A stretch of DNA of 40,474 bases from an uncultured Gammaproteobacteria bacterium (GCA_964365025.1 CAYIOJ010000001.1:1-40474); one strand, 5' to 3'. Shown: positions 1,784 to 30,091, numbered from the stretch's first letter. Notes: a model not told the origin generated them from the sequence alone. Numbers and translations: made by a program.

Positions 1784-2677
1784 ATGTATTGGCAAATACC
1801 AGTCATGTGCCGAGTCATCATCGGTTACATGATCGCACCAGCATTGATCAAGAAGATCGCTACCGCGCCTTCACGCACACGCTCTTTGGTGTGGCAGTAT
1901 TTCTTCTCAGCCGTTTTCGCTTTGAGCATCGCCCTGATCGCAGGCGCGAATCTATGGGAAACACGAGTGATCGCGGTGGCTATCATCGGCGCGTTCAACG
2001 CCTTTGCCTGCTATTGTCATTGGCGGGCAGTAGATATCAGCTTGAGCCGCACTTCGCTTTTCACTCAAGCAGATGACCTTATTTGCTTGGCCTTAGGGTA
2101 CATTATTCTTGGCGAGGGCAAATTCTTGAGTACCTGGCTTGGCATAGGACTGACACTTTCACTAGTGTCAGTATCTATATTCACCTTTGCCAAGACACGA
2201 ACGCCAAAGGCCGATAACGCCCAAAAGCCAGAACAAAAAAAATGGACTATCGGCATCTGGGTAATGCTTTACAGTGTTATCTGGGGGGTGGCCGTCTTTT
2301 CCATGCGCTACTTTTCTCTTCAGGGAATGTCGCTCCCCGGTTACATTGCCGCTTGGTATAGCGGTTCGTATATCGGCGCGCTCGTGGTATTCTTGCTGGG
2401 AGGCAAAAAAGAAGCGGGAGCACCACTCAAGAGGGCACAGATTCTACGAGTTGCCCCGCTTTCTCTGGTCATCTGGCTCTCTCTTATGTCGGTCTACTGG
2501 GCCAAGATGCTCGCGCCGATCACCGTGGTCCAGCCAATCTTCCAGGTCTCCGAAATGATATTTCCAACCCTCATTGGGCTCTGGATTTTCAAAGAGGCCA
2601 AGGAAATGAATATCTGGAGTCGCTTGGCCATTGTCCTTGGTCTAGCCGGCGGCACCATCATTGCCTTGAGTTTTTGA
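1784..2677 (+). CDS. DMT/EamA-like membrane transporter
   Basis: 297 aa from ATG 1784, preceded by AAGGAGG (1772-1778). About 10 TM segments in two repeats, ending in LGYIILGE and IGLWIFKE (EamA-like). Confidence 0.75.
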   Translation: MYWQIPVMCRVIIGYMIAPALIKKIATAPSRTRSLVWQYFFSAVFALSIALIAGANLWETRVIAVAIIGAFNAFACYCHWRAVDISLSRTSLFTQADDLICLALGYIILGEGKFLSTWLGIGLTLSLVSVSIFTFAKTRTPKADNAQKPEQKKWTIGIWVMLYSVIWGVAVFSMRYFSLQGMSLPGYIAAWYSGSYIGALVVFLLGGKKEAGAPLKRAQILRVAPLSLVIWLSLMSVYWAKMLAPITVVQPIFQVSEMIFPTLIGLWIFKEAKEMNIWSRLAIVLGLAGGTIIALSF

Positions 2678-2701
2678 ACAACAAAGCAAAACACAACCCA
2701 C

Positions 2702-2738
2702 GCCCATCTCATGCCAGTTGAGGTGGGCATTTTTATTT
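2702..2738 (+). terminator. Intrinsic terminator of DMT gene
   Basis: GCCCATCTCA-7 nt loop-TGAGGTGGGC followed by ATTTTTATTT. Confidence 0.8.
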
Positions 2739-2769
2739 AAATTCTTCTTCTATTGCCAGAGGAAATCTA

Positions 2770-2797
2770 TTGACAATATCATATTTTGTGCTATTAT
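2770..2797 (+). promoter_or_regulatory. sigma70-type promoter of hypothetical gene A
   Basis: TTGACA (2770-2775), 16-nt spacer, TGn-TATTAT (2792-2797). Confidence 0.7.
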
Positions 2798-2868
2798 ATT
2801 AAACATATCTTAGGGCAAGCAAAGTGTTTGCCAAAAGAACAATGCTTTTTGACAAGTGAGGTGAGAGA

Positions 2869-3939
2869 ATGAACCCGACCATGACCCCTGAAGAATTCGC
2901 CGCTATGGCGAATACCGATGACACTATTCCCATCCCCGCCAATGATGACTGGAAGACAGACGCCGCACTCCGGCGCATTGAACGCAGGATGATCCGGGAT
3001 GAGAACAACCCAGCCGGCTTCGCGGCCTTCTGCCAGGCAGTCCTGGCCGTTGGCATTACCGACGCCGGTAACATGCTCTTCATCGAGCTGGGAGGAGTCA
3101 TCAACGGCCTCCGGCGCCTCAAGCCCTGCGACAATGACACGGTCCGAATCCTTTTCGAGAAAACGAGACGGGCAATCCACGACCTACCAGATGGACCGCG
3201 CAAGGAGCGGCTGGACGGCCTCTGGGACTACAATGCTGGCATTTTCGCTCGCGAGAACGGCGAATACGACCTCGCCGCTCGATCCCAGGAGAGTGGAGCA
3301 AAAAAGGCAGAACAGGCCGGCAACAGGGAGGGTGCGGCAATCTGTGCCTTCACGGCTGCGGTGGAATGGGTCAACCACGCCCTGGTCACTGACCATGGGC
3401 TCGCGCAGGCCGTGCAGCGCCTGCTGGACACGCAGAACAATATGGCTACTGTGCCGCCGACTAGCAACGAGTACCACTGGGTGATGTTCAATGCGCCCGC
3501 GCACCGCATCGTGGCAACTTTCTGGGCCGGCGTGCAGTATGATCAGCTTGATATTGATATTCAGACGCTTCGCCAACTCCACACTAACGACCCCAACATG
3601 GCCCAGGCACACGAGAGCACGCTCGCTGTGTGCTCCGCTATCCATGCCCTCGCGAAGGGAGACACGGATCGCGCTAGCCTCCTGGCCCAAGGTGTCATCT
3701 ACCACCACACCGACGAAGTCCATCCGGATTACTTGGCCACGGCCCACCTCGTTCTCGCAAGGATCACCCTGTTCCGCATCAGCGGACACAGAGGCTCCAA
3801 TCTCTCCCACAACCAGGAGGATGTCCATAGACAATACAAGTCCATCATCAACCTGCCACAAGAGGGCGCCTTCCAAGTGCGCGCCGTTGCTCGACGCGAG
3901 CTCGCCGGCATCAACGACACTGACAGGAACGCCGACTAG
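2869..3939 (+). CDS. Hypothetical all-helical (TPR-like) protein A, homologue of 8031-9050
   Basis: 356 aa, Ala-rich and helical. SD GAGGTGA at 2858-2864. GC-rich (39/60 G+C in 3001-3060 by hand count). Shares ordered motifs with protein B. Confidence 0.85.
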   Translation: MNPTMTPEEFAAMANTDDTIPIPANDDWKTDAALRRIERRMIRDENNPAGFAAFCQAVLAVGITDAGNMLFIELGGVINGLRRLKPCDNDTVRILFEKTRRAIHDLPDGPRKERLDGLWDYNAGIFARENGEYDLAARSQESGAKKAEQAGNREGAAICAFTAAVEWVNHALVTDHGLAQAVQRLLDTQNNMATVPPTSNEYHWVMFNAPAHRIVATFWAGVQYDQLDIDIQTLRQLHTNDPNMAQAHESTLAVCSAIHALAKGDTDRASLLAQGVIYHHTDEVHPDYLATAHLVLARITLFRISGHRGSNLSHNQEDVHRQYKSIINLPQEGAFQVRAVARRELAGINDTDRNAD

Positions 3940-4001
3940 CCGCTCTTGCCACCCGCCGCCTCACTTTTCATTGAGTGAAGCAACAGAAACGAGAAAAATA
4001 A

Positions 4002-4056
4002 AGGTCTGGTAGAGAAACTGCTTAACAGCGGCCAATCTGCCAGACTTCATTTTTTT
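4002..4056 (+). terminator. Probable terminator downstream of gene A
   Basis: AGGTCTGGTAGA (4002-4013) pairs with TCTGCCAGACTT (4036-4047, two G-U pairs), 22-nt loop, then a T run at 4050-4056. Confidence 0.6.
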
Positions 4057-4110
4057 ACCTATCCAAGCTCTTGTTTTCCTACCTTATTCCGTGCTAAACT
4101 CATTTCAGAT

Positions 4111-5475
4111 ATGTCCAACACCTTTAAACAACTCATAATCCTTGCCGGAGACGCTTTGGGGTTTTATTTAGCCCTATTTTTGGCTTTAACTCTGCGCTAC
4201 CAAAAAAACCCCTGGCCGGAAACCTGGTCCAGCCACTGGCCGACCTTTTCTCTGATTTTTTTTCTTTGGCTGGTTATTTTTTATTTAAACGGCCAGTATG
4301 ATTTGCGCAAAACCAAAAATGACTTGCAATTTTTTAGTTCTTTTTTAATTGGAATCGGCATCAACTTGCTTTTAGCCATTGGCTATTTTTACATTGTCAA
4401 TTTGCCGAATTTGAGTCCCAAGACTATTCTGTTATTGTTGGTAGCCATTTATCTGCCTTTGTTCGCCTTATGGAGGCTACTGGCGCATTTTTTACTGCGA
4501 TCCTCTACCTTTGGCGCGCGCCTGCTTTTTCTAGGCCTAACCAAAGAGGCGCAAGAATTGATTTCTATTTTTTCCAATAATCCGCAGTTGGGATATAACG
4601 CGGTAGCGGTGGTGTCAGAAGAACAAAATCAATTTCTTAATGAACTGCCGGCGGCAGTGGAAAAATTATCCGGCTTTGATGGACTCTTGAATTATGTTAA
4701 AATCAAAAAAATTGACACTCTAATTCTGTCTCTGCCTAATACCGACATCGGTCTGAATCGCTTGCTTTATGAAATCATTCTTTCCCGCGTCAACATCGCC
4801 AATATCAATTCTTTTTACGAAACAATCACTCACCGCGTGCCTTTGGCCGCGCTTTCGGAAACATGGTTTTTGGAAAATTTAAAAGAAACGCGTAAAAATG
4901 TTTACGACAAAATGAAATTGGCAACTGATTTTGCGCTGGCCATGATAATGATGACCGGTTTTTTGGTTCTGCTTCCAGTCTTGGCGTTGATAATTTATCT
5001 GAATGACCACGGGCCAATTTTTTATCGCCAAACCCGCGTGGGGCGCGACGGCCAAATTTTCACTATTTGGAAATTCCGAACCATGAAAATTGGAGCGGAA
5101 AACAACGGTCCTCAATTTGCCTCTGTGGGCGACAGCCGCGTAACCGCCGTAGGAAAAATCTTGCGGCTGCTGCGTTTGGATGAATTGCCGCAAGCCATCA
5201 ATATCCTTAAAAATGAGATGAGTTTTATTGGGCCAAGACCGGAACGACCGGAATTCGTGGCGGAATTGCAAAAATTAATGCCCTATTACAACGCGCGGCA
5301 CTTGATCAAGCCCGGGCTGACCGGTTGGGCGCAGGTAAATTACAATTACACTGATTCTTTTGAGGGCAATCTGATGAAATTGCAATTTGATTTGTTTTAT
5401 ATCAAAAATCGATCCCTTTTAGTGGACGCGATTACTCTTTTGAAGACGATAAAGTTGATTGGGGCGGGAAGATAA
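4111..5475 (+). CDS. Polyprenyl-phosphate glycosylphosphotransferase (WcaJ/WbaP family priming sugar transferase)
   Basis: N-terminal TM helices, central Rossmann-like domain, C-terminal Bac_transf motifs KFRTM, RLDELPQ, MSFIGPRPERP, KPGLTGWAQV. Confidence 0.95.
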   Translation: MSNTFKQLIILAGDALGFYLALFLALTLRYQKNPWPETWSSHWPTFSLIFFLWLVIFYLNGQYDLRKTKNDLQFFSSFLIGIGINLLLAIGYFYIVNLPNLSPKTILLLLVAIYLPLFALWRLLAHFLLRSSTFGARLLFLGLTKEAQELISIFSNNPQLGYNAVAVVSEEQNQFLNELPAAVEKLSGFDGLLNYVKIKKIDTLILSLPNTDIGLNRLLYEIILSRVNIANINSFYETITHRVPLAALSETWFLENLKETRKNVYDKMKLATDFALAMIMMTGFLVLLPVLALIIYLNDHGPIFYRQTRVGRDGQIFTIWKFRTMKIGAENNGPQFASVGDSRVTAVGKILRLLRLDELPQAINILKNEMSFIGPRPERPEFVAELQKLMPYYNARHLIKPGLTGWAQVNYNYTDSFEGNLMKLQFDLFYIKNRSLLVDAITLLKTIKLIGAGR

Positions 5476-5486
5476 CCAAAATTTTG

Positions 5487-5566
5487 GTCATTGCGAACGA
5501 AGTGAAGCAATCTCGTGCGGGATTGCTTCGTCGCTCCGCCAGCTGGCGGATGCTCCTCGCAATGAC
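5487..5566. repeat. REP/RPE-like palindromic element with nested 16-bp perfect palindrome
   Basis: Terminal IR GTCATTGCGA/TCGCAATGAC, inner stem GAAGCAATC/GATTGCTTC, nested TCCGCCAGCTGGCGGA (5535-5550). Lies between convergent genes. Confidence 0.88.
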
Positions 5567-6481
5567 TTACTCCATTCCCCAGTCCGCTTTCAACATTTTA
5601 ATGCCATCTTCCAGTTTTATTGATGGCTCCCAACCAAGCAATTTTTTGGCTTTGGCATTATCAGCTCCGGAAAAACGCTGATCGCCCGGACGAGGATCAA
5701 CGAAAACAAACTTGCCACCCATAATTTTTACCAATTCATTAACTGTGGTGGGGCGTCCGCAACCGATATTTATTGTCTCGCCTTTGCCAATATTTTTTGA
5801 AGTAGCCGCCAAGATATTGGCCGTGACAACATCATTCGCATGAGTGTAATCGCGAAAATATTCTCCGTCGCCGCAGACAGTCATGGGCTGTCCCAGTTTT
5901 TTTTGTTTTAAAAATTTACCAATAACCAGAGCATAAGCGCCGTCCGGGTCAAAATACGAGCCATAGACATTGAAATAAATCAGACTTACTGTTTCCAGGC
6001 CGTATAATTCAGAAAATATCCGGCAATAATTTTCACCAATCAGTTTGTGCAGGGCATAAGGGCTGACCGGTATTTTAACTGTGCCGTTTTCTTTTAATAA
6101 ATTACCCGCCTCTTGACCGCCATAAGTGGATGAGGAAGAAGAAAAAACCACTCGCCTGACCTTATGACGACGCGCGGCCATTAACACTTTAAATGTGCCG
6201 TTGACATTGATGTCATGTGTCAATTCCGGATTTTCCACGGAAAAAGTGACGCGAGGCAGAGCTGCCAAATGAAAAATTGTGTCCACCCCAGGGCAAACTT
6301 TATCCAAATCATTATCGTTTCTAATATCGCCTTCCACATACTCGGCGCCCGATTGCATTCTATCTTCTTTTTTGCCAGCTGCGTAATTATCCAAAACAAC
6401 CACTTGGTGTCCGTCAGCCAGTAATTGTTTGACTAAATTTGTGCCGATAAATCCGGCTCCGCCGGTGACAAGATGTTTCAT
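5567..6481 (-). CDS. NAD-dependent epimerase/dehydratase (extended SDR, WbpP/GalE-like)
   Basis: TGGAGFIG, HLAA, SSSS, SPYALHK (YxxxK), YFNVYG, RDYTH motifs. Confidence 0.93.
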   Translation of the reverse strand: MKHLVTGGAGFIGTNLVKQLLADGHQVVVLDNYAAGKKEDRMQSGAEYVEGDIRNDNDLDKVCPGVDTIFHLAALPRVTFSVENPELTHDINVNGTFKVLMAARRHKVRRVVFSSSSSTYGGQEAGNLLKENGTVKIPVSPYALHKLIGENYCRIFSELYGLETVSLIYFNVYGSYFDPDGAYALVIGKFLKQKKLGQPMTVCGDGEYFRDYTHANDVVTANILAATSKNIGKGETINIGCGRPTTVNELVKIMGGKFVFVDPRPGDQRFSGADNAKAKKLLGWEPSIKLEDGIKMLKADWGME

Positions 6482-7863
6482 ATTTTTTTAATTAATGTAC
6501 TGCCCACTGCGATAATCACATATCCCTTTTGCGCTAATTCCGCATATTGATGCTGCAAAATCCTGCGACCATCCATAATTAATGGCTTTTCCCCGGATTG
6601 CGCTAATAAAATATCGCCCAAACTTCTGAATTGCGGCCAATCGGTGGCAATGATTATCACATCCGCGCCTTTAATCGTGGCGACTTGATCGTCAAAATAT
6701 TTGATGATATCAGTTTTAGAAAATAATTGTTTGAAACCATCGGTGGCCGCTGGGTCGTATGCCTGAATCGCCCCAACTTGTTTTTCCAATAAAAAACTAA
6801 CGATGTCAATGCTGGCCGAATTGCGAGTGTCATTGGTTTCTTGTTTAAAAGCCAGACCCAACAGAGCCACAGTTTTCCCAGACCAGCTAAATCCAGTTTC
6901 TTTTTCAGCTCGACCAATAAATAATTCCAATTGTCGTTTATTGGCCAAATAAGTTTCATCCACCAAAACGGCATTTTGCCCGGCTGTTTGCAACTGATGC
7001 GACAGCGAACGCGCGTCTTTAATAAAACAGCTGCCGCCGGCGTACAAACTGTCATAAAGTCCCCACTTGCCAATGCGCGGATCACTTATTAAAATTTTAC
7101 GAAGATTTTCAAAATTTAATTCTGAAAAAGTTTCACAGGTTCTGCCGATGACATCAAAACAAACAGCCAATTTATTAAACAACATAAAATTGGCCAGCAA
7201 TTTTCCAGCCGCCGCTTCTTTGGGATTAGTTTCAATATATTGAACAGTGGAAGAATTATAAAAACGTTGATAAATTTGGCGCATCACCACAAAATCTTTT
7301 TCCTGCCAAGCGCCGACCACCACTCTATCAGGATGCAGTGAACCGATGATGGCCTTGCCTTCAACTAAAAATTCCGGATTGGATGCCACGCCAAAATTTT
7401 TTACGCCGGCTTTGGTCATTATTTTTTCCGTTTGCTCAACCATGTTAATGGGCACAGTGCTTTTGTTAACGATAACAACATCTTTTTCTTGCCGGCCATT
7501 GTTTCGTTTGGCCAAGGCCATGGCTAATTTTTCAGCCGCGGAAAAATAAAAAGTCAAATCACTCTCACCTGTCTCCCCTATTTCAGGCGTTGGCAAACAC
7601 ATAAAAATGGCATCGCAATCACTTAAAAACTTTTCCACTCGCGAGTAATCGGTTGTAAAAGAAATCCTTTCTTTATTGCGAATCAACAAATCGCCCAGCC
7701 CATCTTCAAAAAGGCAGGATTGAATAGTATCGCGGTCTACGGAGGATAGGGCGGCAATTTTCCGCGCGTCAACATCAAAAACAAAAACATCATGCCCGCT
7801 GTCAGCTGACACTGCCGCCGAACAGGCGCCAACGAATCCGGAGCCGATGTAGAGAAGGTGCAT
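6478..7863 (-). CDS. ugd: UDP-glucose/GDP-mannose dehydrogenase family protein
   Basis: GSGFVG, CLPTP, KSTVP, SNPEFLVEG, GGSCFIKD (catalytic Cys), GLAFKQETNDTRNS, DGRR motifs. Confidence 0.9.
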   Translation of the reverse strand: MHLLYIGSGFVGACSAAVSADSGHDVFVFDVDARKIAALSSVDRDTIQSCLFEDGLGDLLIRNKERISFTTDYSRVEKFLSDCDAIFMCLPTPEIGETGESDLTFYFSAAEKLAMALAKRNNGRQEKDVVIVNKSTVPINMVEQTEKIMTKAGVKNFGVASNPEFLVEGKAIIGSLHPDRVVVGAWQEKDFVVMRQIYQRFYNSSTVQYIETNPKEAAAGKLLANFMLFNKLAVCFDVIGRTCETFSELNFENLRKILISDPRIGKWGLYDSLYAGGSCFIKDARSLSHQLQTAGQNAVLVDETYLANKRQLELFIGRAEKETGFSWSGKTVALLGLAFKQETNDTRNSASIDIVSFLLEKQVGAIQAYDPAATDGFKQLFSKTDIIKYFDDQVATIKGADVIIIATDWPQFRSLGDILLAQSGEKPLIMDGRRILQHQYAELAQKGYVIIAVGSTLIKKI

Positions 7864-7888
7864 AATTTTTATTCTTTAAATTGTCTGT

Positions 7889-7917
7889 ATATTATCATAA
7901 ATTGTGTTTTTTGTCCA
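7889..7917 (-). promoter_or_regulatory. sigma70-type promoter of ugd-epimerase pair
   Basis: Minus strand TGGACA-17 nt-TAATAT with extended TG. Confidence 0.6.
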
Positions 7918-7932
7918 TTTTAGCGCCTACTA

Positions 7933-7961
7933 TTGACAAAAACAACTAAATTAAGTACAAT
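7933..7961 (+). promoter_or_regulatory. sigma70-type promoter of hypothetical gene B
   Basis: TTGACA (7933-7938), 17-nt spacer, TACAAT (7956-7961). Confidence 0.78.
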
Positions 7962-8030
7962 AATGATAGAAAATCCAATGATTGCCAAATGGTTTGGCTA
8001 TCAGCTGGATTACCAACCAAGGGGGAATCA

Positions 8031-9050
8031 ATGAACATTGACATGTCAAGAACCGACGCCGAGATTGCCGCTAAACTTGTGGCAACCAATTACACGGATG
8101 CGTCTTTGATTCATAGAGACATCTTAGGCGCTCTCATGGGCCAACCCGGCGGACCCGAACGATACGGCCGCATTTTCCGGATCATGAACGGACTTGTTGA
8201 TGATCCAGCGCGCCAGGCGGATTATCTGCTCTCGGCTGTCTACGGCTTCCGCAATGGCAGCGGCCTTTGGGACGCCGGAATGGTGCGCGGCCTGATTGAT
8301 ATCGTTTACAGACTTTTGCCTAAGGTGAGTGAAGACGCTCGCGTTGAGCTTCAGCGGCGATGTCTTTATCATTTGGGATTGGTCCAGCGCGAAGTGTACG
8401 TGCCCGACCATTTCCTTCATGCCGCCGAGACCCACGGACGCGCGGCCGCGCTTGCCGTAAACGAGGCAAAGAGGGCAATCGAGCTCGTTGTTGCCGCGGT
8501 GGAACGTTTGCATCACGCGATTGAAATCAATGATGCAAACGCTTTTAACACGCACCTGCTAGTACTTGGCCAGCTGGAGGAGATACTCTCATCTGTGGCC
8601 ACGAGCACCGGCGATGCCGAGGCAATGAAATGGCTCAAGGCGGATATTCCGGCCCACCGTTTCTACGCCTGTTATCTCATGGGCGTGCCATATTCCAAAT
8701 CCGGAACTGATCTCGCTTCGCTCACCGGGCTCACCGAGCCGCTGGCCTCGCAATACGCGGTTTGGATTGACATCTGCGCCGGGCTTAACAGCGTCAGAAT
8801 CACTGTTGCTGATAGCTATTGCTCATGGCAAGATAGAGAAGAAACATTCTCTATTGCCGAAAAGGTGTTGGCACGAAACGGCCATCCGACTCACATGGGC
8901 TTTGGCCTCCTCATCGCGGCTATCGCTCACCGCGACACCGGCCATCGTCAGCTGGCTTGTGAGCTCGCCCGCTTCATCGTGAACTACCCGACCCACGGCG
9001 CTCACTTTGTCCGCACCACCGCCAAATGTCTGTTCCTAGAGAGACGCTAA
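8031..9050 (+). CDS. Hypothetical all-helical (TPR-like) protein B, homologue of 2869-3939
   Basis: 339 aa from ATG 8031 with SD AAGGGGG (8019-8025); the ORF track starts at 7989. GC-rich (36/60 G+C in 8221-8280). Shares ordered motifs with protein A. Confidence 0.85.
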   Translation: MNIDMSRTDAEIAAKLVATNYTDASLIHRDILGALMGQPGGPERYGRIFRIMNGLVDDPARQADYLLSAVYGFRNGSGLWDAGMVRGLIDIVYRLLPKVSEDARVELQRRCLYHLGLVQREVYVPDHFLHAAETHGRAAALAVNEAKRAIELVVAAVERLHHAIEINDANAFNTHLLVLGQLEEILSSVATSTGDAEAMKWLKADIPAHRFYACYLMGVPYSKSGTDLASLTGLTEPLASQYAVWIDICAGLNSVRITVADSYCSWQDREETFSIAEKVLARNGHPTHMGFGLLIAAIAHRDTGHRQLACELARFIVNYPTHGAHFVRTTAKCLFLERR

Positions 9051-9065
9051 CAGCTCTCTTCCGCT

Positions 9066-9104
9066 CCGCACGTCTTCAAACTAACCAGACGTGCGGCTTT
9101 TTTT
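9066..9104 (+). terminator. Intrinsic terminator of gene B
   Basis: CCGCACGTCT-11 nt loop-AGACGTGCGG (perfect 10-bp stem), then C and a 7-T run. Confidence 0.85.
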
Positions 9105-9169
9105 AAAACTTTAACACATTTCTTTGCAACCATGGCCAAATTCCATATTCAACCACAAGTAATTATTTC

Positions 9170-10657
9170 TTACCCGCGCACAATTTCCTTTATCACTAGC
9201 CTTAAAGTCAACCAAGGACCTTTTTTAAACACGAAAGTAAACAACCAAAGAATAAATAAATAAAAAAATGCCAAAAAGATGATCCACGCAGCCAAAAGTG
9301 GTTTGCTAGAAAGAGAATGAATAAAATCTCTAAATAAAAAAACCACTAAAAAAGAGCACAAGCTTGCCGTTACCACGCCAAAAATAGAATAAAAAACCCT
9401 ATCTTCCAATAAACGCAAGAAAGATCTGGCCTGAATTAAAACATATATCAACAAAATTGCGGCGATTAAAACCGCCGAGGCGGCTATGCCATTCACACCG
9501 GCTATTTTTATTCCCAAAAAATAAATAGGTACGGAAATCAACAATTGAAATAAATTTGATTTAAAATTTAAATCAGGACGCCCAATCGCTCCAAAAATCG
9601 GTCGAATCATTCCTGTTAACCCAAAAAAAACACCATAAACAGACAAAATTTTTAATGGCACAACTATCGGTAGCCATTTTTGTCCGAACAGAACAGAGAC
9701 TATAAAACCGCCTTCCACCAAAAGCAGCAGACTAAACGGTATTGTCGACAGAAGTATAAGATCCAAACTTTTTAAAAACCCCTCCTGTATTTTATCCCGC
9801 TTATCCTGAACTTTGGCATAAGCGGAAAATCCTATTTTATTCAAAATCCCCGTCAGATTGGCCGAAAACATAGAAGGCAAATCTCTGGCGCGCGTGTAAT
9901 ATCCAAGATTGGTCGGTCCCAGCCACCTTCCAACAATCATGCTGTCTATCGCACCTAAAAAATACTCAAGCAAATTCTGGCCGTAAACCCATTTAGAATA
10001 CCCCACCAACCCTAAAAGATCGCGAAATCGAAAAGAAAAACGCGGCGCAGTAGGATACAAGACATAGGTAGAGACAGCGCCGACAATATGACGGGATACT
10101 TGCCCTATAAAAAGAGCCCAAACCGTAGAGCTGACAAAAATAGCCCAGGCAACAGAAACGATCGTATTGGCAATCTGACCGGCTAGGTCTCTAAAAAAAA
10201 TTTTTTTATAATCCAAGTCTCTAAAAAAATAAAGTTGTCGGCTGTTTGAAAAAGATCCAATAACAAAAAAAATGCCGCTCATTTTTATCAAGATTTTATA
10301 ACTTTCTTCAATTTTAAAAATTTCCGCAATTACTCCGCCCAACAAAAAAATTATAACGGCGAGCAGTGTGGCGCGCAATAAATCAAAAGTCCAAACAGTA
10401 TCAATCATTTTTTCAGGGCTCTCTTTCCTTTGTATCAAAGCGATGCTGAATCCTGGCGCCGCGAATCTATCTATTACACCGCTAAACAGCAAAGCCACGG
10501 TCAAGATACCATAATCTTTAGGCGACAAAAGACGAACTAATACAAAAAAAGAAACTAGATTGAGCAATTTTTGGGCGACCACGCTAATCATAAACCACTT
10601 ACCGCTCCGGATTGATTTTTGAAGCGATCCTTCATTTGTGTTTACTCCGTCTGTCAT
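9170..10657 (-). CDS. wzx: Wzx-type polysaccharide flippase (WzxC/PST family)
   Basis: 495 aa multi-TM; LVRLLSPKDYG, ALIQR, GRWLGPTNLGYY, LFGQKW motifs. Confidence 0.9.
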   Translation of the reverse strand: MTDGVNTNEGSLQKSIRSGKWFMISVVAQKLLNLVSFFVLVRLLSPKDYGILTVALLFSGVIDRFAAPGFSIALIQRKESPEKMIDTVWTFDLLRATLLAVIIFLLGGVIAEIFKIEESYKILIKMSGIFFVIGSFSNSRQLYFFRDLDYKKIFFRDLAGQIANTIVSVAWAIFVSSTVWALFIGQVSRHIVGAVSTYVLYPTAPRFSFRFRDLLGLVGYSKWVYGQNLLEYFLGAIDSMIVGRWLGPTNLGYYTRARDLPSMFSANLTGILNKIGFSAYAKVQDKRDKIQEGFLKSLDLILLSTIPFSLLLLVEGGFIVSVLFGQKWLPIVVPLKILSVYGVFFGLTGMIRPIFGAIGRPDLNFKSNLFQLLISVPIYFLGIKIAGVNGIAASAVLIAAILLIYVLIQARSFLRLLEDRVFYSIFGVVTASLCSFLVVFLFRDFIHSLSSKPLLAAWIIFLAFFYLFILWLFTFVFKKGPWLTLRLVIKEIVRG

Positions 10658-13277: not shown

Positions 13278-14399
13278 TTATTTCAATCTTTTTAAAACTT
13301 CCACAATTTTTTCGGCGGCCTGACCGTCTCCCCAAGGATTCTTTATTTTTTTAATTTTGGCAATGAAAACTTTATTCAAAAGACATTTTTTCATAGCGCG
13401 GACAATTTCTTTTTTATTATAATCGACATCTAACACATTGGCCCCATGCGGCCGACCAAATTGTCTTTTTCCAATGTTCACAACCGGCGTTCCGAAAGAG
13501 GCTGACTCTATAATGCCCGCGCTACTATTGCCCACCCAAACCGCGGCCTCTTTTTCCAAAGAAAGAAAATCTTTGTATGGCAAACTTTTAAATATCCTAA
13601 AAAATAAATTTTTTCTTTCTTTGGCTATTTCTTTTATTATCGCTGTCGATCCGGGATCGGCATTGGGATATATTATTACTATTGGAATTCTAAATGTTTT
13701 GGCAGCTGCGATAGTCTGTCTGACCTGATGAGCGGAATGGCCAATGGCCTCGCTAACAGGATGTTGTGTTATTAAAATAACTTTTTTTGCTGGATTTAAA
13801 CCGAGTTTGGCAAAAAATTTTTTTCGACCGACCAGTCGCGTCTTTTTAATTATGTCTATAGCCGGTGCGCCGGTTACAAATATTTGTTTTTTATCTATAC
13901 CCGCCTTTTTAAGACGCCGCGCCGAATCGTCAGTGGCCGCAAAATGTATCTGAGACAATTTGGTAATAACATACCTTCTCTCATCATCAAGCGTGGTAGT
14001 CTTATCGCCACCGTGGATGTGGGCAATCGGCACACCGAGATGGCGGGCGGCGATAGCCGCGCACAACATTTCCATCCGATCACCTAAAACCAAAACCAAA
14101 TCCGGTTTGTACATAAAAAATTTTTTTTCAAGCAGGGGTATCAATTTTTTTTTAAAAAATTCCAAACTTTTCTTGCTGTCTGAATCAAAAACAGCGCTCA
14201 CACGAACAGCGTTAGAAAATTCTTTTTTTACTTCTCTGGCAGTGAGGCCGAATTTGGGCATAAGATGCATACCGGTGACGAAAACTTTGAGATTAAAAGA
14301 GCGGTCTTTTTGTATGGCTTTCAAAACCGGCGTCATCAGGCCAAAATCAGCCCGCGTGCCGGTAAGATAAGCTATCTTTTTAATTTTTTTATTTTTCAT
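13278..14399 (-). CDS. neuC: Hydrolysing UDP-N-acetylhexosamine 2-epimerase (NeuC/LegG type)
   Basis: TGTRADFG, VTGMHL, LGDRME, HIHGGD, TQHPV, YPNAD, VGNSSAGIIE, NPWGDG. Confidence 0.93.
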   Translation of the reverse strand: MKNKKIKKIAYLTGTRADFGLMTPVLKAIQKDRSFNLKVFVTGMHLMPKFGLTAREVKKEFSNAVRVSAVFDSDSKKSLEFFKKKLIPLLEKKFFMYKPDLVLVLGDRMEMLCAAIAARHLGVPIAHIHGGDKTTTLDDERRYVITKLSQIHFAATDDSARRLKKAGIDKKQIFVTGAPAIDIIKKTRLVGRKKFFAKLGLNPAKKVILITQHPVSEAIGHSAHQVRQTIAAAKTFRIPIVIIYPNADPGSTAIIKEIAKERKNLFFRIFKSLPYKDFLSLEKEAAVWVGNSSAGIIESASFGTPVVNIGKRQFGRPHGANVLDVDYNKKEIVRAMKKCLLNKVFIAKIKKIKNPWGDGQAAEKIVEVLKRLK

Positions 14400-15447
14400 A
14401 ATCCCCAATTTTAATCATCGCGCTAGACAATAAATTCTTTTTAGCTTTTTGGCCAATAATTAAACTGAATAATTTCGGAGACAAACCGTTCCCGGGTCTT
14501 TTAATGCCTATATTTTCTCTAGTAAATTTTTCTCCTTTCTTAATATTCTTAATCGTCACCAAACTTTTTCTGGCAATTTTAATCAACGGAACTTCGCTTT
14601 TGTTCGGTTCTTTAATTGCGCTGCCAAGAACAATTTTTACTTTTCTTACATTTTCTATAATTTTCTTTAATTCCGCCGGTTCGGCCGAAGCTACCTGATC
14701 CGGACCGGCCATGTTTTTGTCCAATGTAAAATGTTTTTCCAAAACACAGGCGCCTAAAGTAGCCGCCATAATCGGTACTTGTGTCCCAAGGGTGTGGTCC
14801 GAATAACCAACCAAAACGCCCAACTTCTTCATCATCATAACCATCGCGGACAAATTAACCTCATCAAACGGACAAGGATAATTAGTGGTGCAGTGCAGAA
14901 TAATTATTTTTTCATTACCGGCCTTTTTTATGCAGGCAACGGCCTCCTTGACTTCTTTCATAGTTGCCATCCCGGTGCCGAGAATCATCGTTTTTTGTAA
15001 TCTGGCGGCATATTGCAAAACCGGCAAATTAGTTAGGTCGCCGGAACCAAATTTAAATGCCGGCACACCGAGTTTTTGTAAAAAATCCACGGATTCAAAC
15101 CCACCGTGCGGTGTGGATAAAAATATTATGCCTTTTTCTTTACACCTTTTGATGATAGGCTTATAAAATTTTTCTTTGAGTTCTAGCTTTTTAAGCATGG
15201 CCAGTTGACTTTCTTCTTTACCTAAATTCTTTTTCTGGTAAGCAGCCATTTTACCGGTTTCAATAACCACCTGCCCGGCTTTAAAGGTTTGAAATTTCAC
15301 CGCGTCAGCTCCGGCCGCGACGGCAGCATCCACCAGCTTGAGCGCTAAATCCAGTCGACCATTATGATTCACTCCCGCTTCGGCAATTATAAAAACCGGC
15401 TGATTTTTGCCAATAAATTTACTGCCAATTTTAATTTTTTTTATCAT
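14389..15447 (-). CDS. neuB: Nonulosonic acid synthase (NeuB/LegI type)
   Basis: IIAEAGVNHNG, AVKFQTF, LHCTTNYP, GYSDHT, EKHFTLD and a C-terminal SAF domain (KRPGNG). Confidence 0.95.
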   Translation of the reverse strand: MIKKIKIGSKFIGKNQPVFIIAEAGVNHNGRLDLALKLVDAAVAAGADAVKFQTFKAGQVVIETGKMAAYQKKNLGKEESQLAMLKKLELKEKFYKPIIKRCKEKGIIFLSTPHGGFESVDFLQKLGVPAFKFGSGDLTNLPVLQYAARLQKTMILGTGMATMKEVKEAVACIKKAGNEKIIILHCTTNYPCPFDEVNLSAMVMMMKKLGVLVGYSDHTLGTQVPIMAATLGACVLEKHFTLDKNMAGPDQVASAEPAELKKIIENVRKVKIVLGSAIKEPNKSEVPLIKIARKSLVTIKNIKKGEKFTRENIGIKRPGNGLSPKLFSLIIGQKAKKNLLSSAMIKIGDYEK

Positions 15448-28597: not shown

Positions 28598-30091
28598 ATG
28601 AAAATTTGTTTTTTTCTACAACGCCGTTTTGCTTATTTAGGCCATAATTTGGCTGTCATCCTTAAAGAAAAATATACCGAACTGGATTTTTGTGGTTATG
28701 TCAATTTGCGCTCCAGCTTTGATTTTTTATCTTCTCAAAAGGATATCAAATACAGCACCCTTCTCTTGGATGAAGACATGCAAAAAAAGTATAAAGAAGA
28801 AAAACTGGATCTAAATTATCTCCAATGGCTAGAAAAAGAGTATGGCACACCGAATCTTTGGCCTTACATCGCCGTTGACCGTATTATTATATCTAATCAG
28901 CTGGTGCGGGAATACCCTTATGACAAACCATCTTATACGCACGAGGAAATGTTGCAACTTCTGCAAGTAATGTCTAAAGCCATCTTATCTTTTTTAGAAA
29001 AAGAAAAACCCAACGCCATATTCTTCTCTGTTATTGGCAGCATGGGTAGTACCCTACTTTTTGAAATGGCTAAAAAAATGGGTATTAAATGTTACCGAAT
29101 CGCAAATTGTCTCAAAGATTTAACTACAGTAACAGACGCTCCCAATTTATCACTTATCAATCCAGCGGAGGCAAGCTCTTTAACCGATATTCAACAAAAA
29201 CAACTGTTAACAAAAGCGATGGTCTTTTTAGAACAGTATCGGTCCATGCCTGTATCCTATTTTACAAAATCAGACCCCCAATATCAACAAATTGATCGAA
29301 CAAAACAATTACAAATTTTATTACCTAAAAATTTTCTAAATTTTATAAAATGGGTTTTTAAATACTTTTATAGTTACCTAACAAGCAAAGAACGCTTTGA
29401 CTATTCTTATACAAAACCGTGGTATTATTTAATAGATGGACTTAAAAGAAAAGTTAGAAATATTATCGGCGTAAACGATCTGTATGACGAACCGGATTGG
29501 AACGAAAATTTTGTTTTTTTTCCACTTCAATTCGAGCCGGAATCTGGCCTTTTACATGTCGCTTATTTTAAAACGAACCAACTAGAAGTTATTAAGCAAA
29601 CCGCCCGCGCCTTACCGGTCGGTTATAAATTATATATTAAAGAACATCCCACCATGGTAATGTACCGACCACGCTCCTTTTATAGAGCGATTAAAAAGAA
29701 CCCTAATGTTAAATTAATTAATCCGGCAATCAAAAGCTTTGATATTATATCACGAGCTAGATTAATTATTTCCATCACTGGCAGCTGCGGCTGGGAAGCA
29801 ACTTTGTTAAAAAAACCGGTTATCACTTTTGGGCTCGCCTTTTATAATCAACTGTCTTTCATAAAAAAATGTCGCGCCTTTGAAGATTTGCCCCAGATGG
29901 TTAAAGAACAGATTGAAAATTTTAATTATAATGAAAACGAACTCCTGGAATATTTAATAAAAATTTTTGAATCTTCGGCGCCGGTAGACTTAATCAGTAC
30001 TTGGGACGACGCCGGTGATAGCCAGCGACAAAAAAAAGCCTTGGAACCATTAGCTGATTTAATCGCTAAAAAACTTGGAATCAGAGCTTAA
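28598..30091 (+). CDS. Capsule_synth/KpsS-like protein; putative CMP-ulosonate transferase
   Basis: FFPLQFEPES, YIKEHP, SITGSCGWEA, KPVITFG..FY in the C-terminal half. Confidence 0.75.
   Translation: MKICFFLQRRFAYLGHNLAVILKEKYTELDFCGYVNLRSSFDFLSSQKDIKYSTLLLDEDMQKKYKEEKLDLNYLQWLEKEYGTPNLWPYIAVDRIIISNQLVREYPYDKPSYTHEEMLQLLQVMSKAILSFLEKEKPNAIFFSVIGSMGSTLLFEMAKKMGIKCYRIANCLKDLTTVTDAPNLSLINPAEASSLTDIQQKQLLTKAMVFLEQYRSMPVSYFTKSDPQYQQIDRTKQLQILLPKNFLNFIKWVFKYFYSYLTSKERFDYSYTKPWYYLIDGLKRKVRNIIGVNDLYDEPDWNENFVFFPLQFEPESGLLHVAYFKTNQLEVIKQTARALPVGYKLYIKEHPTMVMYRPRSFYRAIKKNPNVKLINPAIKSFDIISRARLIISITGSCGWEATLLKKPVITFGLAFYNQLSFIKKCRAFEDLPQMVKEQIENFNYNENELLEYLIKIFESSAPVDLISTWDDAGDSQRQKKALEPLADLIAKKLGIRA

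Follow-up and report, generated by a model that had tools for sequence, protein, structure and literature searches.

An unnamed family of TPR-like proteins, with two stand-alone members at a surface-glycan locus of a tiny groundwater bacterium

The window analyzed here, which is the whole 40,474-nucleotide stretch GCA_964365025.1 CAYIOJ010000001.1:1-40474, belongs to the genome of a tiny groundwater bacterium (1.0 Mb in 64 contigs, estimated to be 99.8% complete with 2.09% contamination) and contains two genes, A and B (Table 1), which an earlier note on this DNA had described as dispersed, diverged paralogues of an uncharacterized family of helical proteins. Our results place both proteins in a new, unnamed family inside the well-known tetratricopeptide repeat (TPR) kind. 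Three genes separate A from B, encoding a Bac_transf priming transferase, which A adjoins, an NAD-dependent epimerase and a UDP-glucose dehydrogenase, and B lies between the UDP-glucose dehydrogenase gene and the gene for a Polysacc_synt_3 flippase. The two proteins are as similar in length as the earlier note had it. Neither has an evident transmembrane segment or signal peptide, which also agrees with that note (the highest 19-residue Kyte-Doolittle means are 1.49 for A and 1.19 for B, and both N-termini are acidic), and both are predicted to be cytoplasmic.

A and B are each a separate transcription unit, a promoter-to-terminator cassette, in keeping with the stand-alone arrangement that had been proposed. 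The sigma-70-like sites of the two genes are the two best promoter-like sites between 2500 and 9300, where they tie with each other; each lies about 70 nt directly upstream of its gene, and the two have the 10-nt string CTATTGACAA in common. The open reading frame (ORF) of B spans 7989-9050 on the plus strand and has an internal ATG at 8031. We prefer the internal start because of the purine-rich AGGGGG stretch upstream of it, because the best promoter-like site ends at 7961, and because the start of the nearest homologue, P0010 (336 amino acids), is in register with it. The automated terminator scan, which was limited to loops of at most 8 nt, does not list the 3′ hairpins of A and B since their loops exceed that limit; it does list a terminator at 2702-2728 that closes the gene preceding A. 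The leaders of A (2803-2875), B (7967-8037), the copy in genome G488 (L011:8501-8572, minus strand) and C, the third copy in the genome studied here (L005:2481-2560, minus strand), can each form a stable hairpin that lies 30-45 nt ahead of the start codon, with energies of -16.6 to -21.8 kcal/mol and z values of -1.5 to -3.3. Leader hairpins of the family are altogether only modestly more favorable in folding energy than those of shuffled sequences (z -1.4 to -3.3). The string GGCAAG was seen by eye in the leader hairpins of A, C and the G488 copy, which may be chance. Across the upstream leaders of nine family genes conservation is limited to the -35 box, except inside one genus, g401, that is discussed below. 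Rfam gave no matches at E ≤ 1 over 2500-9300, and the search for mobile-element repeats around A and B found only short repeats at chance level. Runs X2 and X4, from two other samples, have contigs that bridge all four junctions between the genes and their flanks with no differing letters, and parts of both genes are present in two runs (X5 and X6) of a second study. The runs found, X1-X6, are of DNA, with no RNA run listed among them. Since these independent contigs bridge the GC-rich genes and the AT-rich flanks without differences, A and B are not the product of an assembly chimera.

Table 1. Coordinates and base composition of genes A and B, their signals, and the third copy C. Positions are those of the window, except for C; composition of B refers to the ORF 7989-9050; GC3, G+C content at third codon positions, ranked among 878 ORFs.
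Feature	Position	Strand	GC	GC3	GC3 rank	Description
Sigma-70-like promoter of A	2770..2797	+				TTGACA, 16-nt spacer, TATTAT, TG before second hexamer; 11/12 positions
Gene A	2869..3939	+	0.60	0.73	7/878	ORF, 356 aa, stand-alone TPR-like superhelix protein, subfamily 1; GAGGTGAG stretch before ATG
Possible weak terminator of A	4004..4056	+				6-bp stem, 30-nt loop, T run; by eye, low confidence
Sigma-70-like promoter of B	7933..7961	+				TTGACA, 17-nt spacer, TACAAT; 11/12 positions
Gene B	8031..9050	+	0.55	0.61	33/878	339 aa, stand-alone TPR-like protein, subfamily 2; AGGGGG stretch before ATG
Intrinsic-terminator-like hairpin 3′ of B	9067..9105	+				10-bp G+C-rich stem, 11-nt loop, T run; by eye
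Copy C	G000:C10:13829-15280	-	0.52	0.53	143/878	483 aa, profile E 6e-25

That A and B are homologous, as the earlier note had claimed, is clear from their direct comparison. BLASTP aligned residues 88-342 of A with residues 81-332 of B at E 2e-10 and a score of 47 bits; of the 269 aligned positions 64 are identical (24%), gaps make up 12%, and all five of the colinear blocks quoted in the note fall, in order, within this one alignment. The Smith-Waterman score of the pair is 127. Shuffling B 1000 times gave a mean of 35.6 (standard deviation 5.2, maximum 68; z 17.6), shuffling A as often gave a mean of 35.9 (standard deviation 5.2, maximum 64; z 17.5), and the Gumbel p is 6e-11. When A was used in a six-frame search of the whole genome, B was the sole other match (E 3e-6). 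The search with a family profile, a means of counting copies that the note had suggested, detected three in the genome: A (E 5e-114), B (E 2e-75) and C.

Relatives beyond this genome establish the family. A word-indexed search of 5.8 billion proteins returned seven other relatives of A, at 35-78% identity, and one of B, P0010, at 48%. A profile built from A, B and these relatives, 10 sequences in all, and run over 1.84 billion representatives of clusters formed at 50% identity, gave 278 matches at E ≤ 1e-3, 189 at E ≤ 1e-10 and 60 at E ≤ 1e-30, and nearly all of the best 150 of the 278 are 320-375 amino acids long and matched from end to end. Judged from these sequences, the family is real, consists of a single domain of about 340 residues, and is covered by no curated model. 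Inspection by eye recognized no extra domain in members P0012, P0078, P0088, P0122, P0139, P0079, P0053 and P0077. For A and B themselves, no family of Pfam, NCBIfam or PADLOC was matched at E ≤ 10, and PHROG gave a single match, phrog_1949, of unknown function, at E 0.025. The sole PDB sequence match of A was a Dps protein at E 0.15, which we dismissed as a relative. Our literature search found no published description of the family.

The statement that A and B belong to no known family is thus correct with respect to the curated libraries, but it has to be qualified because the family is a divergent TPR family. The profile of 60 members matches consensus TPR designs, at E values of 1.4e-4 to 0.06, in the block Y121-A144, the most conserved of the family, and 7 of the 60 members reach Pfam TPR_12, TPR_21 or TPR_19, the best of them TPR_12 at 9.7e-6. 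The block YNAGIFARE quoted in the earlier note is the canonical TPR signature and not a catalytic motif. The difference from canonical 34-residue TPR proteins lies in the failure of A and B to reach any Pfam model even at the permissive threshold given above, and in a set of conserved features that the family has to itself.

The AlphaFold2 (AF2) model of A has a predicted local distance difference test (pLDDT) score of 88.8 and a predicted template modeling (pTM) score of 0.87, and it contains 18 helices and no strands, with a helical repeat extending over residues 7-354. It agrees with the alpha-solenoid that had been anticipated, and its helices are predicted to pair into about eight hairpins that build a right-handed TPR superhelix. 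The top Foldseek rows are TPR proteins, with LGN the best at E 2.5e-3 and a TM score of 0.52-0.55. We aligned the model with VIA-align against 48,161 chains and followed this with a second structural look. In the first ranking the highest scores were those of AimR (Z 19.0 over 271 residues, root-mean-square deviation 3.6), NprR (18.9) and APPBP2 (18.5), with MalT domain III (17.7), LGN (17.6), Rap proteins (16.0-16.9) and PlcR (14.7) further down; in the second look APPBP2 (20.4) was followed by NprR (19.6), phi3T Rap (18.4) and RapF (18.0). Over 266-316 residues the model aligned with 50 TPR entries at Z values of 15.6-20.4. In the ESM Atlas its structure neighbors are sensor modules of the TPR_12 type from kinases, cyclases and sigma-54 activators. 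A role as sensor or receptor, one of the candidates put forward in the earlier note, would fit these nearest folds.

Conservation among the 60 members points to a different set of residues from the one first proposed. Near-invariant are R82, Y121 and W204 (58 members each), P210 (56), and A341 and A136 (55 each), and the next tier consists of H212, R114 and D17 (50 each), R111, P21 and W28 (47 each) and N208 (46). The earlier note had suggested that conserved E, H, H-R and H-P residues may form a ligand, metal or catalytic site. Most of them are poorly kept: E129 and H170 are found in 15/60 members each, R213 in 16/60 and H293 in 9/60, and in the column of H285 no residue exceeds 8/60. W204, P210 and H212 alone hold, and the PAHR motif reduces to W-x5-P-x-H. 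Specific to the family are this motif, an N-terminal non-helical D-x-T-x-P...W segment and a C-terminal QVRAVA helix, along with arginines in NGLRR, PRKxRL and QVRAVA-x-R. It is a reasonable guess that the groove is rich in arginine and accommodates an acidic peptide or else an anionic ligand.

A and B are not the outcome of a duplication in this genome. In a tree of 104 rows A groups with P0002-P0007 (99% by the Shimodaira-Hasegawa-like approximate likelihood ratio test, SH-aLRT) and B with P0010 (98%), and a split with 99% SH-aLRT support separates A from B, the side of B also holding the copies from genomes G488, G567, G487 and G630. In an approximately unbiased (AU) test on 42 rows, a clade of A plus B was rejected with a log-likelihood difference of 257 (p 1.9e-36). 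Because of the split in the tree and the outcome of the AU test we regard A and B as members of two old subfamilies rather than a local expansion, and the word paralogues, if it is meant as an expansion within the genome, has to be given up.

The third copy, C, is a long-branch orphan with about 150 extra residues at its C-terminus. In the ESM Atlas its residues 330-483 are receiver-like, with a score of 0.93 by features and TM scores of 0.66-0.70 by structure, and 8 of 10 rows are PF00072. A single-sequence AF2 model of this domain, which at pLDDT 58 is of low confidence, displays a (beta-alpha)5 pattern. As far as can be seen by eye, without an alignment to a receiver model, the stretch corresponding to strand 3 ends in Glu and not in the phospho-acceptor Asp. 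The whole genome contains only two PF00072 matches, at G000:C41:7558-7833 and G000:C2:102-254; both lie at contig ends and may be halves of one gene. By this count of domains, classical two-component signaling is nearly absent from the genome.

The base composition of A and B sets them apart from their surroundings. The genome has a GC content of 43.4%, and its 878 ORFs of at least 100 amino acids have a mean GC3 of 0.456 (standard deviation 0.089), among which A and B rank near the top (Table 1). The step in GC is sharp and confined to the coding sequences of the two genes. Their proteins contain 2.2-2.4% Lys compared with 8.1% for the genome, 7.6-7.7% Arg compared with 4.6%, 13-14% Ala compared with 7.9%, and 4.2-4.4% His compared with 1.8%. 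The excess at third positions is not intrinsic to the family, and it recurs elsewhere: GC3 is 0.86 in the G488 copy and 0.33-0.55 in 14 of its neighbors, 0.77 in the G567 copy and 0.41-0.52 in its neighbors, 0.44 at locus L016 with neighbors at 0.27-0.49, and 0.37 at locus L017 with neighbors at 0.27-0.31. A and B look like foreign, GC-rich insertions into gene clusters for a sugar coat. Just upstream of A, at 1739-2677 on the plus strand, an ORF of 312 amino acids encodes a multi-pass hydrophobic protein that has no Pfam match. With a GC of 0.50 and a GC3 of 0.59, both higher than in its neighbors, this ORF is possibly a further foreign gene next to A. Further ORFs with GC3 values of 0.71-0.86 are found in the genome at G000 C5:8000-20000, C13:5000-18000, C6:18609-20225, C11:12180-13304 and C7:29394-29825. 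They include Cys-rich repeat proteins (one of 735 amino acids with MopE motifs and one of 1158 amino acids with 13 Dicty_CTDC repeats), a DEAD/HA2 helicase of 1231 amino acids and several others without a Pfam match. A and B are thus part of a wider mosaic of GC-rich genes in this genome.

The distribution of the family is patchy. When 400 further genomes sampled across the phylum were searched with the profile, none had it, and of 400 others sampled across the class 4 did. One of six genomes in the taxonomic family of G488 has the gene, as do 3 of 14 in the family of G567, all three of them in the genus g401, where 3 of 5 genomes carry it and the two without it are 80% and 86% complete. The genomes in which the family has been found up to now are all very small, low in GC and of the Patescibacteria or candidate phyla radiation (CPR) kind. 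Two pattern scans of viral contigs, whose sensitivity is low for so divergent a family, found no relatives, and a tblastn search with A against phages and plasmids found no match.

The genus g401 also gives an indication of tempo. The gene is syntenic among its genomes, and its proteins are 54-61% identical compared with 63-96% for the neighbors. Since synonymous sites are saturated (proportion of synonymous differences, pS, 0.60-0.79), rates were compared by the nonsynonymous distance dN alone, which is 0.36 for the family gene and 0.09-0.26 for its neighbors. In two of the genomes the leader of the gene (L012:8691-8790, minus strand; L013:7288-7382, plus strand) contains about 85 nearly identical nucleotides with two hairpins, while the proteins encoded downstream are only 56% identical and synonymous sites are saturated. 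This leader may be a conserved regulatory RNA or an operator. The combination of fast protein evolution, a conserved leader and a GC3 that has stayed high next to neighbors at about 0.5 fits diversifying selection with allelic replacement, or else a constraint specific to the gene.

Our evidence on gene neighborhoods rests on eight independent contexts, namely those of A, B, C, L006, G488, g401, L016 and L017. Alignment-based searches for related loci found one in metagenome contigs; in genome contigs one such search found none and another found two. Glycan loci make up five of the eight (A, B, C, L006 and G488), and three of these five come from one genome. C lies between genes for an RmlB-like dehydratase and FdtA/RmlD, the L006 copy between a GT1 gene and methyltransferase/DegT genes, and the G488 copy between NeuB and a PglD-like acetyltransferase, inside an operon on the same strand. 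Even so, inspection by eye suggests that the G488 copy has promoter-like hexamers of its own, together with a ribosome-binding stretch and with a hairpin followed by a T run; the automated scan lists none of these. The g401 copy is located outside any glycan locus, between uvrD/DUF3800 and an ABC1 kinase, and the other two contexts are likewise of a different kind, with AbiE, CYTH, ABC-F and histidine kinase genes at L016 and His_Phos_1 and HIT genes at L017. A 91-amino-acid GIY-YIG ORF is present at 3625-3900 of the G488 glycan operon (L011), where a gene for an AbiEii toxin (14241-15014) lies 6 kb from the family gene, and at L016:1129-2486 an AbiEi/AbiEii pair is found 4.5 kb from it. The GIY-YIG ORF and the AbiE genes are signs that the loci of the family take up mobile genes. 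The glycan loci could be partners in function, or they could be sites that simply tolerate insertion.

Beyond B and the flippase gene, the window contains a very large glycan cluster (10683-40196 on the minus strand, with 28598-30091 on the plus strand). Its core is of the nonulosonic-acid type (Polysacc_synt_2, DegT, hexapeptide transferase, Epimerase_2, NeuB, GFO/IDH/MocA and CTP_transf_3), and it also encodes six radical-SAM proteins, two with B12-binding domains and one with SPASM, at least five methyltransferases, a HisF/HisH-like pair and a Capsule_synth protein. The sugar made by this cluster appears to be unusually heavily tailored.

A comparison with characterized TPR superhelices brings out both likenesses and differences. 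The RRNPP quorum-sensing receptors for peptides (NprR, AimR, Rap and PlcR), which belong to Bacillota and to phages and plasmids of Bacillota, are of similar size (250-500 amino acids), are cytoplasmic and form all-helical TPR superhelices, and their structures align with the model over 211-300 residues, although identity to A and B is just 5-12%. Rap proteins come closest in that they, like A and B, are helical repeats over their whole length and have no DNA-binding domain; the alignments span Rap residues 3-372, so that a Rap-like N-terminal bundle in A is possible, though unproven. Rap acts on receiver proteins, and the fusion of C to a receiver-like domain recalls this. By analogy, Rap-type RRNPP proteins would be the closest working model for A and B. 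Membership is another matter. Among the five criteria given for RRNPP receptors in PMC10075063 are a length of about 250-500 amino acids, matches to TPR hidden Markov models from several libraries at E < 1e-5 with coverage above 65%, and a directly adjacent gene for a small (10-100 amino acids) secreted propeptide. The lengths of A and B fit, but neither protein matches a TPR model of Pfam or NCBIfam, and their hosts are bacteria with tiny genomes rather than Bacillota. A crude scan of the four intergenic regions next to A and B, in search of ORFs of 10-100 amino acids with a ribosome-binding stretch and a signal-like N-terminus found no propeptide gene; the only two small ORFs with a ribosome-binding stretch encode 10 amino acids inside the promoter of A and 13 amino acids antisense to the end of A. 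As output module, RRNPP receptors have an N-terminal helix-turn-helix (PlcR, NprR, AimR, PrgX and Rgg) or the N-terminal helical bundle of Rap. No helix-turn-helix family was matched in either protein, and the alignments with AimR and NprR start at residues 67-78 of those proteins, past their N-terminal domains. We therefore do not count A and B as RRNPP members. Our literature search found no link between RRNPP and Patescibacteria beyond a review of plasmids that names both.

Two other kinds of superhelix are also near in structure. In the degron receptor APPBP2 and in LGN/Pins, a superhelix of about eight repeats wraps an extended peptide, and these proteins are the best or near-best structural matches of A (APPBP2 at Z 20.4 over 316 residues, LGN at the score given above). 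They differ in being eukaryotic and part of larger complexes, identity is 7-13%, and in sequence there is only a weak match to an LGN/Pins profile at E 0.02. MalT domain III is a ligand-sensing superhelix of the sensor type found in STAND NTPases, and it aligns at Z 17.7-17.8 over 295-300 residues, covering residues 1-354 of the model. In contrast to MalT and the other STAND proteins, A and B have no NTPase or P-loop match and are TPR from end to end.

The explanation that we favor, with a probability of about 0.55, is that A and B are cytoplasmic TPR adaptors or regulators whose groove takes up a peptide, the tail of a protein or a small ligand, and which signal through contacts between proteins. 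The concave groove would enclose the ligand, with the conserved residues R82, R111, R114, Y121, W204, N208, P210, H212 and R338 as a candidate binding site, and the proteins would act through contacts with other proteins and not by binding DNA. The receiver-like domain of C would tie the family to signal transduction. The genes are accessory, being foreign in composition, patchy in distribution and fast in evolution. They either arrived separately or were kept from different subfamilies rather than duplicated here, and they tend toward variable surface-glycan loci, which they probably entered by horizontal acquisition.

Several observations weigh against this explanation. With Foldseek, no entry of PDB or BFVD matched the model at E ≤ 1e-3. 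Helical-repeat models reach Z values of about 14 against unrelated repeats, and our list of Z values is flat, declining from 20.4 to 15.6 over 50 rows. Given a flat list and the tendency of repeats to score high by nature, the match means a TPR superhelix of the peptide-enclosing type, not an RRNPP receptor or any one family. The word-indexed search found no homologue of C beside itself; the C-terminal part of C has no Pfam match at E ≤ 1 and its best PDB sequence match, a response regulator, is at E 0.47, and the model at pLDDT 58 ties TIR (10.2), receiver (9.8-9.9) and SDR/Rossmann (9.7) folds in VIA-align Z. With respect to foreign origin, the GC excess is in part intrinsic to a family rich in Ala and Arg, 147 members having a median of 13.3% Ala and a median R/(R+K) of 0.62, compared with 0.31-0.49 in neighbors. 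The L006 copy has no GC3 excess. The g401 gene combines vertical synteny with a high GC3, and recent transfer is therefore only one of the possible readings. Across the eight contexts, moreover, no neighboring gene recurs and no partner gene is conserved.

The glycan loci raise the possibility of a more direct role, in which the proteins would be accessories of the glycan pathway, either as TPR adaptors or chaperones that recognize the protein- or lipid-linked substrate of a glycosyltransferase or as scaffolds for the cytoplasmic enzymes of nonulosonic-acid or deoxysugar synthesis that are encoded nearby. We consider this a doubtful alternative, although five of eight contexts speak for it. 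The remaining three (g401, L016 and L017) are not glycan loci, the count has no background rate and draws three of its five cases from one genome, and the neighboring enzyme is different in every case. Moreover, the genes have their own promoters and a foreign composition, so the glycan loci, with GIY-YIG and AbiE genes nearby, may be no more than tolerated sites of insertion.

It is also conceivable, though in our estimation improbable, that the family belongs to a conflict system, as a fast-evolving TPR sensor of an invader protein that serves in defense against phages or as a mobile-element countermeasure, with the C-terminal domain of C as the effector or signaling part. Such a system would explain the patchiness at the level of a genus, a dN above that of all syntenic neighbors, and the islands of foreign composition that consist of a single gene; AbiE toxin-antitoxin genes lie less than 7 kb away in two of the eight contexts, the nearest folds include MalT domain III, and a TIR chain is among the joint best matches to the C-terminal part of copy C. 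That last match comes, however, from the low-confidence model in which receiver and Rossmann folds score equally well. PADLOC gave no matches, the searches of viral contigs, phages and plasmids yielded no relatives, and A and B have neither an effector domain nor a conserved neighbor that could supply one.

An enzyme or metal-binding protein built on the E, H, H-R and H-P residues is very unlikely: the conservation of W204, P210 and H212 and the high His content of A and B could be cited in its favor, but the other proposed positions are unconserved, the median His content of the family is 2.4%, both fold and profile are those of TPR proteins, and no enzyme family is matched. Finally, the sharp GC steps at the ends of the coding sequences, together with the estimated contamination, could make one think of chimeric assembly inserts or non-functional remnants, an artefact that is hardly credible in view of the identical junctions in independent contigs, the parts of both genes in a second study, the intact frames, promoters and ribosome-binding stretches, the full-length homologues and the confident model.

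If A and B are groove-binding TPR adaptors or regulators, a more far-reaching proposal can be attached to them, which as a single joint claim we put forward only as a speculation that is unlikely to hold in all its parts. In it, the family would be a lineage-specific, horizontally mobile, one-gene cassette of Patescibacteria, complete from promoter to terminator, that encodes a Rap-like TPR receptor without a propeptide and has been inserted repeatedly, with its foreign GC-rich codons, in surface-glycan loci. The protein would there sense a cue in the form of a peptide or protein, perhaps of phage or host-cell origin. The cue would switch a surface-glycan program or a receiver-type pathway through protein-protein contacts. 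Fast evolution of the protein next to a strongly conserved 5′ leader would then follow from diversifying selection acting on the groove that does the sensing.

Patescibacteria have genomes of about 1 Mb and almost no classical signal transduction. An accessory, fast-evolving family of receptor-shaped TPR proteins located in glycan loci is thus a candidate for the means by which these episymbionts perceive partners or phages and adjust their cell surface, a question that is hard to reach in uncultivated cells. With 278 clusters at 50% identity, the family could be given a Pfam or NCBIfam model. The more interesting side of the finding is evolutionary, in that islands of foreign composition, each a single gene, recur in the surface-glycan loci of reduced genomes, and their recurring GC3 spikes (0.73-0.86 compared with about 0.46) provide a clean marker for gene flow into such genomes.

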